Source: Escherichia coli (GTDB lineage Bacteria > Pseudomonadota > Gammaproteobacteria > Enterobacterales > Enterobacteriaceae). Taken from it: a stretch of DNA of 64,000 bases. Of this stretch, positions 17,471 through 52,575 are shown in pieces. The notes under the pieces were generated by a model that was not told the origin of the DNA, did not search any database, and saw nothing but the letters and a program-made list of their open reading frames with translations. The position numbers were made by a program, and so were the translations under genes. The stretch is from NCBI RefSeq assembly GCF_051903065.1, contig NZ_CP178438.1; one strand, written 5' to 3'. The first letter of the stretch is position 1. Every line of letters begins with the position of its first letter.

Positions 17471-18527
17471 GGCTTTGTTGAATAAATCAGATTTCGGGTA
17501 AGTCTCCCCCGTAGCGGGTTGTGTTTTCAGGCAATACGCACGCTTTCAGGCATACCTGCTTTCGTCATTTTGTTCAGCGCTCGTACCAGGGCCATAGCCT
17601 CTGCAACCTGACCATCGTAGTCACGCAGTGTCAGTGAACCCCCGAACAGCTGTTTTACCCGGTACATCGCCGTTTCCGCTATCGAGCGACGGTTGTAATC
17701 TGTTGTCCATTTCCACCGCGCATTACTCCCGGTCATTCGCTGATTAGCCACTGCACGGTTACGGTCTGCATATTCACCGGGCCAGTAACCCGCACCTTTT
17801 CGGGGAGGGATAAGCGCGCTGATTTTCTTACGCCGCAGTTCATCGTGACATAGCCGGGTATCGTAAGCGCCATCGGCGGCGGCTGACCTGATTTTCCGGT
17901 GGGTTTGCCGGATTAACCCGGGGAAGGCCTCTGAGTCCGTAACGTTGTTCAGCGACAGGTCAGCGCAGATGATTTCATGTGTTTTACTGTCAACGGCGAG
18001 ATGCAGCTTACGCCAGATACGGCGGCGTTCCTGGCCATGCTTTTTGACTTTCCACTCGCCTTCACCGAAGACCTTCAGCCCGGTGGAATCAATTACCAGG
18101 TGTGCGATTTCACCCCGGGTGGGCGTTTTGAAACTGACATTAACCGACTTTGCCCGCCTGCTGACACAGCTGTAATCCGGGCAGCGTAGCGGAACGTTCA
18201 TCAGAGAAAAAATGGAATCAATAAAGCCCTGCGCAGCGCGCAGGGTCAGCCTGAATACGCGTTTAATGACCAGCACAGTCGTGATGGCAAGGTCAGAATA
18301 GCGCTGAGGTCTGCCTCGTGAAGAAGGTGTTGCTGACTCATACCAGGCCTGAATAGCTTCATCATCCAGCCAGAAAGTTATGGAGCCACGGTTGATGAGG
18401 GCTTTATTGTAGGTGGGCCAGTTGGTGATTTTGAACTTTTGCTTTGCCACGGAACGGTCTGCGTTGTCGGGAAGATACGTGATCTGATCCTTCAACTCAG
18501 CAAAAGTTCGATTTATTCAACAAAGCC
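17471..18527 (-). mobile_element. IS903-group insertion sequence (IS5 family), complete 1057 bp
   Basis: Terminal inverted repeats GGCTTTGTTGAATAAATC at both ends. Confidence 0.85.
17527..18495 (-). CDS. IS903 transposase
   Basis: 322-aa ORF; translation matches IS903 transposase as recalled. Confidence 0.85.
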   Translation of the reverse strand: MKDQITYLPDNADRSVAKQKFKITNWPTYNKALINRGSITFWLDDEAIQAWYESATPSSRGRPQRYSDLAITTVLVIKRVFRLTLRAAQGFIDSIFSLMNVPLRCPDYSCVSRRAKSVNVSFKTPTRGEIAHLVIDSTGLKVFGEGEWKVKKHGQERRRIWRKLHLAVDSKTHEIICADLSLNNVTDSEAFPGLIRQTHRKIRSAAADGAYDTRLCHDELRRKKISALIPPRKGAGYWPGEYADRNRAVANQRMTGSNARWKWTTDYNRRSIAETAMYRVKQLFGGSLTLRDYDGQVAEAMALVRALNKMTKAGMPESVRIA

Positions 18528-18583
18528 GGGTGATGCTGCCAACTTACTGATTTAGTGTATGATGGTGTTTTTGAGGTGCTCCA

Positions 18584-18859
18584 GTGGCTTCTGTTTCTAT
18601 CAGCTGTCCCTCCTGTTCAGCTACTGACGGGGTGGTGCGTAACGGCAAAAGCACCGCCGGACATCAGCGCTATCTCTGCTCTCACTGCCGTAAAACATGG
18701 CAACTGCAGTTCACTTACACCGCTTCTCAACCCGGTACGCACCAGAAAATCATTGATATGGCCATGAATGGCGTTGGATGCCGGGCAACAGCCCGCATTA
18801 TGGGCGTTGGCCTCAACACGATTTTACGTCACTTAAAAAACTCAGGCCGCAGTCGGTAA
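18584..18859 (+). CDS. insA: IS1 InsA
   Basis: [21 protein letters not shown]... translation. Confidence 0.9.
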
Positions 18860-19281
18860 CCTCGCGCATACAGCCGGGCAGTGACGTCATCGTCTGCGCG
18901 GAAATGGACGAACAGTGGGGCTATGTCGGGGCTAAATCGCGCCAGCGCTGGCTGTTTTACGCGTATGACAGGCTCCGGAAGACGGTTGTTGCGCACGTAT
19001 TCGGTGAACGCACTATGGCGACGCTGGGGCGTCTTATGAGCCTGCTGTCACCCTTTGACGTGGTGATATGGATGACGGATGGCTGGCCGCTGTATGAATC
19101 CCGCCTGAAGGGAAAGCTGCACGTAATCAGCAAGCGATATACGCAGCGAATTGAGCGGCATAACCTGAATCTGAGGCAGCACCTGGCACGGCTGGGACGG
19201 AAGTCGCTGTCGTTCTCAAAATCGGTGGAGCTGCATGACAAAGTCATCGGGCATTATCTGAACATAAAACACTATCAATAA
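18778..19281 (+). CDS. insB: IS1 InsB (transposase expressed as InsAB' by frameshift)
   Basis: 167-aa ORF overlapping insA in the -1 frame. Confidence 0.9.
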
Positions 19282-19296
19282 GTTGGAGTCATTACC

Positions 19297-25844: not shown

Positions 25845-26110
25845 ATGCCGGAGGCGACGCTGCGCGTCTTGTCCGGCCTACAGGTATCAGGTCGGATAAG
25901 GCGTTTACGCCGCATCCGACATTCGGCGCACCATGCCGGAGGCGACGCTTACGCGTCTTGTCCGGCCTACGGAAATGTAGGTCGGATAAGGCGTTTACGC
26001 CGCATCCGACAATCGGCGCACCCATGCCGGAGGCGACGCTTTGCGTCTTGTCCGGCCTACGGGGATCCAGGTCGGATAAGGCGTTTACGCCGCATCCGAC
26101 AATCTGTACG
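25845..26110. repeat. REP/BIME cluster (about 4 REP units) between gabT and gabP
   Basis: Repeated gccggatgcggcgtaaacgccttatccgacct units in alternating orientation. Confidence 0.85.
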
Positions 26111-39129: not shown

Positions 39130-40122
39130 ATGCGACATAGCGTTCTTTTTGCGACAGCGTTTGCCACGCTTATCTCTACACAAACTTTTGCTGCCGATCT
39201 GCCGGGCAAAGGCATTACTGTTAATCCAGTTCAGAGCACCATCACCGAAGAAACCTTCCAGACACTGCTGGTCAGTCGTGCGCTGGAGAAATTAGGTTAT
39301 ACCGTCACTAAACCCAGCGAAGTGGATTACAACGTTGGCTACACCTCGCTTGCTTCCGGCGATGCAACCTTCACCGCCGTGAACTGGACGCCACTGCATG
39401 ACAACATGTACGAAGCTGCCGGTGGCGATAAGAAATTTTATCGTGAAGGGGTATTTGTTAACGGCGCGGCACAGGGTTACCTGATCGATAAGAAAACCGC
39501 CGACCAGTACAAAATCACCAACATCGCACAACTGAAAGATCCGAAGATCGCCAAACTGTTCGATACCAACGGCGACGGTAAAGCGGATTTAACCGGTTGT
39601 AACCCAGGCTGGGGCTGCGAAGGTGCGATCAACCACCAGCTTGCCGCGTATGAACTGACCAACACCGTGACGCATAATCAGGGGAACTACGCAGCGATGA
39701 TGGCCGACACCATCAGTCGCTACAAAGAGGGCAAACCGGTGTTTTACTACACCTGGACGCCGTACTGGGTGAGTAATGAGCTGAAGCCAGGGAAAGATGT
39801 GGTCTGGTTGCAGGTGCCGTTCTCTGCACTGCCGGGCGATAAAAATGCCGATACCAAACTGCCGAATGGCGCGAATTACGGCTTCCCGGTCAGCACCATG
39901 CATATCGTTGCCAATAAAGCCTGGGCCGAGAAAAACCCGGCAGCAGCGAAACTGTTTGCCATTATGCAGTTGCCAGTGGCAGATATTAACGCCCAGAACG
40001 CCATTATGCATGACGGCAAAGCCTCAGAAGGCGATATTCAGGGCCACGTTGATGGCTGGATCAAAGCCCACCAGCAGCAGTTCGATGGCTGGGTGAATGA
40101 GGCGTTGGCAGCGCAGAAGTAA
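39130..40122 (+). CDS. proX: Glycine betaine/proline periplasmic binding protein
   Basis: 330 aa from [21 protein letters not shown] signal peptide. Confidence 0.95.
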
Positions 40123-40124
40123 TT

Positions 40125-40215
40125 TTTATTCGGGCGGATAAGGCGTTTTCGCCGCATCCGCCGCTCTGTACACAATGCCTGATGCGACGCTGGCGCGTCT
40201 TATCATGCCTACAAA
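40125..40215. repeat. REP element downstream of proX
   Basis: gcggataaggcgttttcgccgcatccgcc / gcctgatgcgacgctggcgcgtcttatcatgcctac palindromic units. Confidence 0.75.
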
Positions 40216-40313
40216 CCACACCGCACATTTCAACAATCTATCTTTCATCCCATATTCATCAACATCCGCTATTATTGATTTCCAGCTTAATCATCACCTG
40301 ATGAACAAAAATA

Positions 40314-41498
40314 ATGACCAAACCTAATCATGAGCTTAGCCCGGCGCTAATCGTGCTGATGTCTATCGCCACCGGTCTGGCGGTCGCCAGCAACTATTAC
40401 GCCCAGCCATTGCTCGACACCATCGCGCGTAACTTTTCCCTTTCCGCCAGTTCGGCAGGCTTTATTGTTACCGCCGCGCAGTTGGGCTATGCCGCCGGTC
40501 TGCTGTTTCTTGTTCCTCTGGGTGACATGTTTGAACGTCGCCGCCTGATTGTCTCAATGACCTTACTGGCGGCAGGTGGCATGTTAATTACTGCCAGCAG
40601 TCAGTCGCTGGCGATGATGATCCTCGGTACGGCATTAACCGGTTTGTTCTCGGTCGTGGCACAAATTCTGGTTCCGCTGGCAGCAACGTTGGCATCACCA
40701 GACAAACGCGGCAAAGTGGTTGGCACCATTATGAGCGGTCTGCTGCTGGGGATCTTACTCGCACGGACCGTTGCCGGATTGCTGGCGAACCTCGGCGGCT
40801 GGCGCACCGTCTTTTGGGTCGCTTCGGTATTAATGGCACTGATGGCGCTGGCGTTATGGCGTGGTCTGCCACAAATGAAATCAGAAACCCACCTCAACTA
40901 CCCACAGTTGTTAGGTTCCGTTTTCAGCATGTTTATCAGCGATAAGATCCTGCGCACCCGCGCATTGCTGGGCTGCCTGACTTTTGCCAACTTCAGCATT
41001 CTCTGGACCTCGATGGCCTTTTTGCTTGCCGCTCCACCTTTTAACTACAGCGATGGCGTAATTGGTCTGTTTGGACTTGCGGGGGCTGCCGGAGCGTTGG
41101 GCGCTCGTCCGGCGGGCGGTTTTGCCGACAAGGGCAAATCGCACCACACCACAACTTTCGGTCTGCTGCTGCTGTTACTTTCATGGCTGGCAATCTGGTT
41201 TGGTCACACTTCCGTACTGGCGTTGATTATCGGCATTCTGGTGCTGGACCTCACCGTACAGGGCGTGCATATCACTAACCAGACGGTAATTTATCGAATA
41301 CATCCTGATGCGCGTAATCGCCTGACCGCAGGTTACATGACCAGCTACTTTATTGGCGGTGCCGCCGGTTCGCTAATTTCAGCCTCAGCCTGGCAACATG
41401 GCGGTTGGGCTGGCGTTTGTCTGGCTGGCGCGACGATTGCCCTGGTTAACTTACTGGTCTGGTGGCGAGGTTTTCATCGTCAGGAAGCCGCAAATTAA
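40314..41498 (+). CDS. ygaY: MFS transporter YgaY (intact here)
   Basis: 394-aa uninterrupted ORF with multiple TM helices. Confidence 0.85.
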   Translation: MTKPNHELSPALIVLMSIATGLAVASNYYAQPLLDTIARNFSLSASSAGFIVTAAQLGYAAGLLFLVPLGDMFERRRLIVSMTLLAAGGMLITASSQSLAMMILGTALTGLFSVVAQILVPLAATLASPDKRGKVVGTIMSGLLLGILLARTVAGLLANLGGWRTVFWVASVLMALMALALWRGLPQMKSETHLNYPQLLGSVFSMFISDKILRTRALLGCLTFANFSILWTSMAFLLAAPPFNYSDGVIGLFGLAGAAGALGARPAGGFADKGKSHHTTTFGLLLLLLSWLAIWFGHTSVLALIIGILVLDLTVQGVHITNQTVIYRIHPDARNRLTAGYMTSYFIGGAAGSLISASAWQHGGWAGVCLAGATIALVNLLVWWRGFHRQEAAN

Positions 41499-41621
41499 GC
41501 AATCAGCAACCGTTTTCGTGGCTTTACACTTATAAGGGTGTTAAGAAGCCCATCAGTCTGATAAGGTTAAGATATTCATTCAGTCTATTTATAATATTAA
41601 CAATCGTTAAGCGTACACTCT

Positions 41622-42359
41622 ATGGAAAGCCCTACTACACAGCCTGCTCCTGGTTCGGCGACCTTCATGGAAGGATGCAAAGACAGTTTACCGATTGTTA
41701 TTAGTTATATTCCGGTGGCCTTTGCGTTCGGTCTGAATGCGACCCGTCTGGGATTCTCTCCTCTCGAAAGCGTTTTTTTCTCCTGCATCATTTATGCAGG
41801 CGCGAGCCAGTTCGTCATTACCGCGATGCTGGCAGCCGGGAGTAGTTTGTGGGTTGCTGCACTGACCGTCATGGCAATGGATGTTCGCCATGTGTTGTAT
41901 GGCCCGTCACTGCGTAGCCGTATTATTCAGCGTCTGCAAAAATCGAAAACCGCCCTGTGGGCGTTTGGCCTGACGGATGAGGTTTTTGCCGCCGCAACCG
42001 CAAAACTGGTACGCAATAATCGCCGCTGGAGCGAGAACTGGATGATCGGCATTGCCTTCAGTTCATGGTCATCGTGGGTATTTGGTACGGTAATAGGGGC
42101 ATTCTCCGGCAGCGGCTTGCTGCAAGGTTATCCCGCCGTTGAAGCAGCATTAGGTTTTATGCTTCCGGCACTCTTTATGAGTTTCCTGCTCGCCTCTTTC
42201 CAGCGCAAACAATCTCTTTGCGTTACCGCAGCGTTAGTTGGTGCCCTTGCAGGCGTAACGCTATTTTCTATTCCCGTCGCCATTCTGGCAGGCATTGTCT
42301 GTGGCTGCCTCACTGCGTTAATACAGGCATTCTGGCAAGGAGCGCCCGATGAGCTATGA
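41622..42359 (+). CDS. ygaZ: AzlC-family L-valine exporter subunit
   Basis: 245 aa. Confidence 0.9.
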
Positions 42360-42684
42360 GGTTCTGCTGCTTGGGTTACTGGTTGGCGCGGCGAATTATT
42401 GCTTCCGCTATTTGCCGCTGCGCCTGCGTGTGGGTAATGCCCGCCCAACCAAACGTGGCGCGGTAGGTATTTTGCTCGACACCATTGGCATCGCCTCGAT
42501 ATGCGCTCTGCTGGTTGTCTCTACCGCACCAGAAGTGATGCACGATACACGCCGTTTCGTGCCCACGCTGGTCGGCTTCGCGGTACTGGGTGCCAGTTTC
42601 TATAAAACACGCAGCATTATCATCCCAACACTGCTTAGTGCGCTGGCCTATGGGCTCGCCTGGAAAGTGATGGCGATTATATAA
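42349..42684 (+). CDS. ygaH: AzlD-family L-valine exporter subunit
   Basis: 111 aa. Confidence 0.9.
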
Positions 42685-46416: not shown

Positions 46417-47124
46417 ATGAATACCCAACTTAAATACGGGAGAACCTGGCATTATCCTTTCTCCCCCGGCACCACCAGCGATGACCGCATTAACGCCGAT
46501 TACTGGCAGGATTTACAGGCCATCACGCAATTGGTGCACACAGAAAAACTCGACGGCGAAAATAACTGCCTTAACCGCTACGGCGTGTTTGCCCGTTCCC
46601 ATGCTGCGCCTACGCAGTCGGCATGGACTTATAAAATTCGCCAGCGTTGGCAACTGCTGAAAAACGATCTCGGCGATCTGGAACTGTTTGGTGAAAATCT
46701 CTACGCCGTTCATTCCATTGAATACCGCGCACTGGAACAGGACTTTTACCTGTTTGCCGTTCGCTGCCAGGATATGTGGCTGAGCTGGGAAGAGGTGCAG
46801 TTTTACGCCGCTCTGTTTGATTTCCCCTTCGTTCCCGAAATCTCCGGTCCGCAGCCGGGGAATGATGAAAAAAGCTGGCAACGTGATTTTCTGGCACTGA
46901 CCAATGCGCGCGGCGCGTTCGATCCCTGGGATACACAAACCGGGCAACCCTGTACGCTGGAAGGCATTGTCAGCCGGAATCGTGATGCGTTTTCCGTCGC
47001 TGACTTTTCGCATAACGTCTTCAAGTATGTGCGCAAAAATCATGTCAAAACCACCGTGCACTGGAAACGACACTGGCAACGGGCGCGGATGGCCCATGAG
47101 TTCGCTTATGGAGAACAGTCATGA
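46417..47124 (+). CDS. ATP-dependent polynucleotide (RNA) ligase-like nucleotidyltransferase
   Basis: Motif I EKLDGEN (KxDG), motif IV-like LEGIVSR, motif V-like [10 protein letters not shown]. Confidence 0.65.
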
Positions 47125-48233
47125 TTTGGCAGCTTACCGACGATAAACGCTGGTCGACACTACGCCAGCGTTTCAGTTGGGTTGAGGAGATGCATCACAC
47201 GCCACAAGACCCTGAGCATCATGGTGAAGGCGACGTCGGCCTGCATACCGAAATGGTGCTGAACGCCCTCGTTACTCTGCCAGAATTCCAGCAACTCCCC
47301 GCTCAACAGCAGGAAGTTTTATGGGCGGCGGCGTTATTGCATGATGTTGAAAAGCGCAGCACTACCGTGCAGGAAAACGGACGTATTCAGTCGCCGGGCC
47401 ATGCTCGTCGGGGCGAACTGACGGCCCGGCTGATTTTGTGGCGCGATATCCCAACGCCGTTCATGCTGCGCGAGCAAATCGTTGCGCTGGTGCGTCTGCA
47501 TGGGTTACCGCTATGGTTACTGGAACGTCCGGAACCGGAGCGTTTGCTGCTCACGGCTGCAATGCGCATCGACACGGGTCTGCTCGCTTTGCTTGCTCGT
47601 GCCGATCTGCTTGGTCGCCAAAGCCCGGATCGGCAATCAATGCTGGAACGCATCGATCTGTTCGAGCTGTTTTGCCAGGAGCAACAGTGTTGGGGAAAAG
47701 TGCGCTCGTTCGTGTCTGATTCCGCACGCTGGCATTACCTGACCCATGAGCAAAGTTCTCCTGATTTTGTTCCCTGGGAGGCTGAACCTTTTGAGGTCAT
47801 TTTGCTGTGTGGCTTACCGGGTATGGGCAAAGATCGCTATATCAATGAACAGTGCCAGGGAATGGACGTTATCAGCCTTGATGATATGCGGCGGCGAATC
47901 AATGCCAATCCGGACGACAAAACCGCCACCGGGCGTATTGTGCAACAGGCAAAAGAAGAGGCACGCGTTTTTTTACGCCAGAAAAAGCCGTTCATCTGGA
48001 ATGCAACGAACATTACCCGCCAGCTGCGTAGCCAGCTCATCAGCCTGTTTACGGCTTACGGCGCACGAGTAAAAATCGTTTATCTTGAAGTGCCATGGGC
48101 GCAATGGAAGCAGCAAAATGCCAGACGCGAGTATGCAGTTCCTGAAGCGGTCGTGATGCGGATGGCCTCAAGGCTGGAAGTTCCTCAACCTGATGAAGCA
48201 CATAGCGTGGAGTATCGGGTGATTGAAAGGTAA
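47121..48233 (+). CDS. HD-domain phosphohydrolase / P-loop NTPase fusion (predicted polynucleotide kinase-phosphatase)
   Basis: N-terminal H..HD motifs ([18 protein letters not shown]); C-terminal Walker-A-like GLPGMGKD; start overlaps ligase stop by 4 bp. Confidence 0.6.
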
Positions 48234-48865: not shown

Positions 48866-48938
48866 GAAAGACGCGCATTTGTTATCATCATCCCTGAATT
48901 CAGAGATGAAATTTTGGCCACTCACGAGTGGCCTTTTT
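48866..48938 (+). ncRNA. micA: Small RNA MicA (SraD)
   Basis: GAAAGACGCGCATTTGTTATCATCATCCCTGAATTCAGAGATGAAATTTTGGCCACTCACGAGTGGCCTTTTT matches MicA with intrinsic terminator. Confidence 0.9.
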
Positions 48939-51847: not shown

Positions 51848-51924
51848 TGGTGCATCCGGGAGGATTCGAACCTCCGACCGCTCGGTTCGTAGCCGAGTAC
51901 TCTATCCAGCTGAGCTACGGATGC
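51848..51924 (-). tRNA. argQ: tRNA-Arg (anticodon ACG)
   Basis: Reverse complement is GCATCCGTAGCTCAGCTGGATAGAGTACTCGGCTACGAACCGAG...CACCA. Confidence 0.9.
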
Positions 51925-52122
51925 ATCGGGAAAATTTATTTTACTGCTGATATTGATATCGCTACTAAAGCCATATCAAGTAAGAGATGGTGCATCCGGG
52001 AGGATTACTCGCCTTGCGGCTCGCCCTTCGGGCCGTTGCTGGCGCAACGTTATCCTCCCTGGTGCCTGCGGTTAATTCCGCTACCTCTTCGATACCTTCA
52101 TTGCTGAAGATTTCGGAGAATA

Positions 52123-52199
52123 TGGTGCATCCGGGAGGATTCGAACCTCCGACCGCTCGGTTCGTAGCCGAGTACTCTATCCAGCTGAGCTACGGATGC
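52123..52199 (-). tRNA. argZ: tRNA-Arg (anticodon ACG)
   Basis: Identical tRNA-Arg sequence. Confidence 0.9.
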
Positions 52200-52261
52200 A
52201 TCGGGAAATTTATTTTACTGCTGATATTGATACCGCTACTAAAGCTGTATCAAGTAAGAGA

Positions 52262-52338
52262 TGGTGCATCCGGGAGGATTCGAACCTCCGACCGCTCGGT
52301 TCGTAGCCGAGTACTCTATCCAGCTGAGCTACGGATGC
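52262..52338 (-). tRNA. argY: tRNA-Arg (anticodon ACG)
   Basis: Identical tRNA-Arg sequence. Confidence 0.9.
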
Positions 52339-52402
52339 ATCGGGAAACTTACTTTACTGCAGATTTTTTGATACCGCTACTAAAGCCGTATCAAGTAAGA
52401 GA

Positions 52403-52479
52403 TGGTGCATCCGGGAGGATTCGAACCTCCGACCGCTCGGTTCGTAGCCGAGTACTCTATCCAGCTGAGCTACGGATGC
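52403..52479 (-). tRNA. argV: tRNA-Arg (anticodon ACG)
   Basis: Identical tRNA-Arg sequence. Confidence 0.9.
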
Positions 52480-52482
52480 AAA

Positions 52483-52575
52483 TGGCGGTGAGGCGGGGAT
52501 TCGAACCCCGGATGCAGCTTTTGACCGCATACTCCCTTAGCAGGGGAGCGCCTTCAGCCTCTCGGCCACCTCACC
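52483..52575 (-). tRNA. serV: tRNA-Ser (anticodon GCU)
   Basis: Reverse complement is GGTGAGGTGGCCGAGAGGCTGAAGGCGCTCCCCTGCTAAGGGAG...CGCCA with long variable arm. Confidence 0.9.

Follow-up and report, generated by a model that had tools for sequence, protein, structure and literature searches.

The stretch of DNA studied here (henceforth the window) comprises 64,000 nucleotides of Escherichia coli contig NZ_CP178438.1. At 40314..41498, on its plus strand, it carries the ygaY coding sequence, a single open reading frame (ORF) of 394 amino acids that starts with ATG and contains no internal stops, as seen both in the ORF listing and by direct reading of the sequence. The RefSeq CDS has the same bounds, and both the AF2 model and a match to Pfam MFS_1 (PF07690; 142.2 bits against a cut-off of 33.4, E=2.6e-41) identify the product as an MFS transporter. 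By our estimate, 394 open codons would arise at random with a probability of (61/64)^394, i.e., ~6e-9, which places the frame far beyond chance. The choice of start codon is supported by identical RefSeq coordinates in strain ECNB21-M121 (100% identical to the window over this stretch) and by the near invariance of M1 in an alignment of 86 homologues. The predicted protein has the same sequence as RefSeq WP_000165699.1 (‘MFS transporter’). At the DNA level the allele is rare (4 of 5426 genomes at least 99% identical over 1.6 kb); the protein that it encodes is the common one.

Upstream of ygaY lie proV, proW and proX (the last gene of proVWX; 39130..40122, plus strand), and downstream ygaZ (41622..42359), ygaH, mprA/emrR and emrA, as judged from ORFs and the annotation of a near-identical strain; ygaZ-ygaH (41622..42684, plus strand) are annotated as L-valine exporter subunits. 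The initial annotation had described an uninterrupted 394-aa MFS reading frame downstream of proX, and on both points it was correct. The 191-bp proX-ygaY spacer (40123..40313, plus strand; sequence reading and Rfam) holds a REP/BIME-type element at 40132-40209 (Rfam naRNA4, RF02564; 73.5 bits), because of which BLAST searches hit many extra places per genome. The same Rfam family also scored at 25890-25967 and 25980-26057, with 69-77 bits over the copies in the window. In BL21(DE3) the spacer is 100 bp longer, and in some other strains it likewise has ~100 bp more; we read the extra sequence as a second REP/BIME-type copy. Our promoter/terminator scan found no consensus sigma-70 promoter on the plus strand upstream of ygaY, with counts not above shuffled expectation, and no Shine-Dalgarno-like sequence was evident in the spacer before the ATG. 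A promoter-like site was detected by the same type of scan in the ygaY-ygaZ spacer (41567-41595, plus strand).

Several other features of the window were recorded along the way. Two inserted genes lie between emrB and luxS (approximately 46417-48233, plus strand). One codes for a protein of 235 aa with an RNA_ligase domain (PF09414), the other for a kinase-like, ATP-binding protein of 370 aa with an AAA_33 match (PF13671). The window shares this insert with ECNB21-M121, whereas BL21(DE3), in which emrB adjoins luxS, lacks it. PADLOC returned no match for the insert; the two genes may be an accessory pair that acts in RNA repair or is of a defence type. An IS1 copy occupies 18527-19296, and to its left the window no longer matches ECNB21-M121 (otherwise 99.986% identical), which holds a retron Ec78 system where the two diverge. 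The best matches to positions 1-20515 were variable islands with the ypjA autotransporter, an ‘anti-phage dCTP deaminase’ and prophage-type genes (replication endonuclease, terminase ATPase subunit and integrase). Also recorded, and ordinary for this part of the chromosome, were the MicA sRNA (48866-48937, 83.9 bits), adjoining luxS, and five minus-strand tRNA genes at 51851-52575, for which the ECNB21-M121 record gives one tRNA-Ser along with four tRNA-Arg.

We then compared ygaY with its K-12 counterpart. In MG1655 (NC_000913.3) the gene (b2681) is an annotated pseudogene of 1178 bp, and PGAP describes the BW25113 copy as ‘MFS transporter, frameshifted’; the statement in the initial annotation that ygaY is disrupted in K-12 MG1655 was thus borne out. 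Alignment did not return the same intact ORF in K-12. Instead, the window and MG1655 copies differed by 52 substitutions and one indel, a stretch of 7 bp at about gene positions 256-264 that is deleted in K-12. The deletion affects codons 86-88 and throws the sequence out of frame beyond codon 85, halfway along TM3 (helix 75-94 in the AF2 model), which removes nine and a half helices; what is left in K-12 is an 88-aa product and a separate 305-aa ORF starting at Met90. In the window the lesion site is an imperfect 7-bp tandem repeat, GCGGCAG-GTGGCAT, at 40569..40582 (plus strand; codons A86-A87-G88-G89-M90, placed by alignments). Both repeat units are kept there and the frame is open, so the window does not carry a K-12-type pseudogene allele; in K-12 a single GCGGCAT unit remains (CTG-GCGGCAT-GTTG).

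The AF2 model of YgaY (pLDDT 93.8, pTM 0.92) has 12 transmembrane (TM) helices and a central loop helix at 196-209. The predicted arrangement of the 12 helices as two six-helix bundles, together with an MFS_1 score above the gathering cut-off, indicates that the protein belongs to the MFS. Foldseek placed the structurally solved DHA1 drug:H+ antiporters SotB, MdfA and NorA at the top of its matches (E 4e-12 to 5e-10, TM 0.80-0.86). Profile searches were less specific: NCBIfam gave generic MFS matches with no equivalog or subfamily model reaching its cut-off, including the DHA1 (TC 2.A.1.2) models Bcr/CflA (TIGR00710; 50.4 vs 200.9 bits), EmrD (38.1 vs 479) and Cmx/CmrA (52.5 vs 400). The DHA1 likeness of the predicted structure is one of how the protein might work, not one of membership. 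A PDB sequence search likewise returned generic, weak MFS matches, the best being the glucose transporter GlcP over its N-terminal half only.

Two MFS signature motifs were compared with the sequence. Motif A has the consensus G-x-L-a-D-r-x-G-R-K/R and lies in the TM2-TM3 loop. The loop of YgaY between helices 45-65 and 75-94 carries such a motif, P68-L-G-D71-M-F-E-R75-R-R77; it lacks the first and the middle Gly of the consensus, and its G70 and D71 hardly vary among the 86 homologues. The antiporter motif C (g-x-x-x-G-P-x-x-G-G, with its GP dipeptide) is located in TM5, where YgaY has a glycine-rich segment (G137-TIMS-G142-LLL-G146-ILLAR151-TVAG155) with no GP dipeptide. In the 86-sequence alignment G62, P68 and G251 were invariant, and Y28, Q31, P32, G70, D71, R151, D272, D312, R336 and others were at least 90% conserved. 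A deep homologue search yielded 1144 clusters at 50% identity (E<=1e-30). Its top match was a 596-aa ENA metagenome protein, 73% identical, that scored 1092 bits against a self-match of 834, as would be expected of a ygaY frame that has been duplicated or fused, probably through an assembly artefact.

In TCDB, YgaY of E. coli (P76628) is listed as 2.A.1.36.3, ‘function unknown’ (PMC5417439). The listing in 2.A.1.36 (the YnfM family) extends to the protein in the window, which has no replacement relative to the K-12 frame in aligned codons. BLASTP between YgaY and E. coli YnfM gave 26% identity over residues 1-390 vs 20-414 (E=2e-20), i.e., full-length homology. YnfM has been reported to export glutarate in BL21(DE3) and in C. 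glutamicum, in a manner sensitive to CCCP, and deletion of ynfM alone abolished glutarate export in BL21(DE3) (PMC12622518). Given that BL21(DE3) encodes a YgaY identical to that of the window, YgaY is not a redundant glutarate exporter under those conditions, and glutarate, suggested as a substrate by analogy with YnfM, was dropped as our leading guess. We searched the literature for a study characterising intact YgaY and found none; the mentions concerned uses of the K-12 pseudogene, chromatin studies and TCDB listings. Orthologues at 50-57% identity were found in unrelated neighbourhoods, with no conserved regulator or enzyme and no hint of a substrate.

Judged from its predicted fold and relatives, YgaY would most likely export a small organic solute in a proton-coupled manner, using the MFS rocker switch (alternating access). 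The nearly invariant charged residues D71 and R75-R77 (motif-A-like loop), R151, D272, D312 and R336 are candidates for gating and for proton or substrate coupling. Which way YgaY would transport, and coupled to which ion, is predicted from fold relatives and one distant paralogue, and the main alternative is that YgaY is an importer (a solute:H+ symporter), e.g., for uptake of an osmoprotectant or nutrient beside proVWX. The MFS fold does not fix direction, with the D-galactonate:H+ symporter and GlpT also among the fold matches, and the best PDB sequence match is the partial one to GlcP; moreover, ygaY stays adjacent to proVWX throughout the Escherichia and Citrobacter loci compared, and read-through from proVWX after salt shock has been reported. 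On the other hand, that adjacency is lost in the orthologues at 50-57% identity, the top fold matches are all exporters, as is YnfM, the single characterised member of the TCDB family, and the downstream ygaZH and emrAB are annotated as exporters too. Import is thus a serious possibility that we nevertheless regard as rather unlikely, and we retain export as the preferred reading.

As to expression, papers on the K-12 locus describe ygaY transcripts as scarce and report that a minor peak of H-NS at the gene forms a bridge to the proU regulatory element; a moderate induction of ygaY upon salt shock is attributed there to read-through from proVWX. Considering the H-NS binding reported in K-12 and the lack of a consensus promoter or Shine-Dalgarno sequence, the intact gene may be poorly expressed. 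By analogy with the K-12 locus, its expression would probably be low and could rise through read-through from proVWX after osmotic upshift.

We next considered whether the intact frame is ancestral and maintained by selection. Intact orthologues, mostly of 394 aa, were found in Shigella, E. fergusonii (98%), E. marmotae (98%), E. albertii (96%) and Citrobacter (93%), and the gene order nrdF-proVWX-ygaY-ygaZH-mprA-emrAB is kept in E. fergusonii and Citrobacter. Nei-Gojobori counts of synonymous (Sd) and non-synonymous (Nd) differences from the window were 51 and 0 for K-12 (dN/dS 0), 83.5 and 8.5 for E. fergusonii (dN/dS 0.029), and 186.1 and 37.9 for Citrobacter (dN/dS 0.038, at a dS of about 1.2). 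Syntenic intact orthologues in the outgroups and low dN/dS together show that the intact ygaY is ancestral and under strong purifying selection. Both adjectives of the initial annotation are in line with these data: ‘ancestral’ agrees with the syntenic 394-aa orthologues of E. fergusonii and Citrobacter, and ‘functional’ is supported, at the level of sequence evolution, by the dN/dS of 0-0.04.

The same data bear on the possibility that ygaY is an intact yet silent relic, i.e., bound by H-NS, equipped with poor expression signals and without a role in fitness, and merely not yet broken. Such a state would fit the missing consensus promoter and ribosome-binding site, the H-NS signal and low transcripts reported at K-12 ygaY, and the fact that K-12 grows normally without the gene, whose deletion serves as a neutral control. 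However, a neutral relic would have gathered replacements and stops, whereas the window and K-12 differ by synonymous changes only, dN/dS stays at 0.03-0.04 as far out as Citrobacter, and the 394-codon frame is kept in at least five species. We therefore consider a silent relic quite improbable and favour a gene that is maintained by selection.

The K-12 copy itself has no replacement substitutions relative to the window and is, outside the gap, 100% identical to that of the natural strain 1916D6, so that its inactivation is recent on an evolutionary scale. Divergence from K-12 is raised, and almost wholly synonymous, across 39200..41342 (plus strand): by gene, dS was 0.19 in ygaY and 0.10 in proX, compared to 0.00-0.025 in proV, proW, ygaZ, ygaH and mprA. 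The right edge of this patch is sharp and falls at ygaY codon 343, suggesting that the patch is probably a recombination mosaic.

To establish how common the two states of the gene are, we counted the deletion by the exact junction 40-mer and by record spans of spread matches rather than by identity bands, which are only partly useful because the high local SNP density puts intact alleles in the 80-90% band as well. The exact 40-nt K-12 junction occurred in 353 of 5426 complete E. coli genomes. Among 60 evenly spaced matches listed, the carriers mostly had recognisable K-12 laboratory names (e.g., MG1655, BW25113, C600, MC4100, JM109, TG1, J53-derived, EPI300 or S17-1) or were isolates of serotype O16:H48, and the others had K-12-sized genomes. 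A gapped 61-nt search from the intact allele recovered the locus in 5416 genomes; among 60 spread matches listed, a 54-nt span was seen only in the ~4 ranked lowest, in agreement with about 353 carriers. The 7-bp deletion is confined to one K-12 haplotype, and as it is common to K-12 sublines that separated early, it would predate their divergence.

All 8 natural isolates taken from across the identity ranking (O157-like, APEC O1, ST131 and O113:H21 among them) were annotated with an intact ygaY CDS, as were ECNB21-M121 and BL21(DE3), giving 10 of 10 inspected non-K-12 genomes; in one of the 8 isolates the protein is 393 aa long, having lost a codon in frame. Among 39 full-locus matches listed, a frame-breaking difference in length was seen only in two BW25113 records. 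Strain PO06101 has a natural in-frame 3-bp deletion at codon 284, in a run of Leu codons, which leaves 393 aa and keeps the frame; it is the second minor variation in length seen in ygaY. On the basis of the junction count and the ten inspected annotations, ygaY is usually intact in E. coli, and it is K-12 that deviates. The suggestion that this strain may retain an ancestral functional transporter consequently holds in part: the ancestral intact gene stands, and special retention by this strain does not, as being intact is the norm. That K-12 carries a pseudogene with intact homologues elsewhere (RefSeq WP_000165699.1) is already known; our additions are modest and consist of the proposed origin of the K-12 lesion by repeat slippage, the frequency of the G88C allele and the synonymous-only divergence.

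The proposed origin of the lesion starts from a natural allele. At the lesion site, strain 1916D6 reads GCGGCATGCGGCAT, i.e., CTG-GCGGCAT-GCGGCAT-GTTG, a perfect 7-bp tandem duplication that arises via GGC->TGC (G88C); other natural alleles have GCGGCAG-GCGGCAT or GCAGCGG-GCGGTAT. We found G88C in 791 of 5426 genomes (about 15%), whose origins include humans, dogs, poultry, pigs and water. Two haplotypes flank the allele, one matched exactly (685 genomes) and one that differs by three flank SNPs (104). An older, tolerated G88C substitution (GGC->TGC) may thus have turned the imperfect 7-bp repeat into the perfect tandem GCGGCAT-GCGGCAT, and replication slippage in a K-12 ancestor would then have dropped one GCGGCAT unit. 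On these sequence comparisons, we infer that G88C first, followed by loss of one unit through slippage, is the most parsimonious history. By the same reasoning, the repeat units in the window, with their two mismatches, should be less prone to slippage. A probe with three copies of the repeat aligns to 2-copy alleles as two overlapping pieces at 100%; judging from coverage, there was no 3-copy allele among the 791 matches (all at least 80% coverage, none in the 80-90% band). With no 3-copy expansion in the collection, the K-12 deletion looks like a single accident rather than phase variation.

The order of events could also be turned around, such that the intact state is derived: a K-12-like frameshift would be ancestral for the K-12/G88C haplotype, and G88C would represent repair by 7-bp re-duplication, with Cys88 as a scar. 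The perfect duplication of the 1916D6 type is exactly what re-duplicating the K-12 sequence would give, and both routes need two events. However, G88C is spread over 791 diverse natural genomes and both flanking haplotypes, while the deletion is found in 353 genomes of apparently one laboratory lineage, and codon 88 is GGC or GGT in other E. coli alleles and in outgroups, one substitution from TGC. Repair is for these reasons highly unlikely, and even if correct it would leave the window allele untouched, as the window carries neither form. We found nothing to suggest that the K-12 ‘pseudogene’ stems from an error of sequencing or annotation, with K-12 truly intact, and this reading is ruled out for practical purposes by the identical junction 40-mer in 353 complete-genome records, whose carriers include the long-separated K-12 sublines MG1655, BW25113, C600, AB1157, MC4100, JM109, TG1 and J53.

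Returning to slippage after G88C, a bolder version is that G88C is a slippage-prone ‘pre-pseudogene’ state with recurrent and maybe reversible loss, of which K-12 would be the one case captured, and that, separately, YgaY is an osmotically co-expressed exporter tied to proVWX via read-through and the reported H-NS bridge. We put this forward as a speculation that is improbable as it stands. We are highly confident of the explanation as a whole, namely that the window carries an ordinary, ancestral and intact ygaY allele encoding an MFS transporter and that the K-12 copy bears the lesion.

The result has little import beyond annotation hygiene, but it illustrates several points. K-12 is the reference for gene function in E. 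coli, so genes that are broken in it, ygaY among them, stay uncharacterised. In K-12, ygaY has served as a ‘neutral’ control and as a site for engineering, and it features in papers on metabolic engineering and imaging, although strong purifying selection maintains it in natural E. coli, Shigella, other Escherichia and Citrobacter. What was found in K-12 about the proU-ygaY chromatin bridge and about read-through bears on a gene that is real in most strains, and BL21(DE3), with its identical intact YgaY, is a ready host for a substrate search. Slippage at the perfect 7-bp repeat would be a small example of how a silent-looking polymorphism predisposes a gene to loss. The picture is the mirror image of a strain that retains something: K-12 lost what nearly all other E. 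coli keep.

The closest known systems include the copies whose protein is the same as in the window, i.e., those of the WP_000165699.1 carriers BL21(DE3), O113:H21 FWSEC0010, strain 222 and ECNB21-M121. K-12 ygaY (b2681; UniProt P76628; TCDB 2.A.1.36.3) is the same gene at the same locus with the same neighbours, at 95.6% nucleotide identity and with 0 amino-acid replacements in aligned codons; it differs in missing 7 bp, so that its product ends at 88 aa, and in its annotation as a pseudogene, whereas the copy in the window is whole. YnfM, which gives its name to TCDB 2.A.1.36, belongs to the same family as YgaY, and the TM5 Arg is aligned between the two, although YnfM is only a distant paralogue. 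Finally, SotB (6KKK/6KKL; TM 0.84-0.86), MdfA (4ZP0/4ZOW; TM 0.83) and NorA (8TTF; TM 0.80-0.81) have a 12-TM MFS fold like that predicted for YgaY, while their sequence identity to it is just 15-18%.
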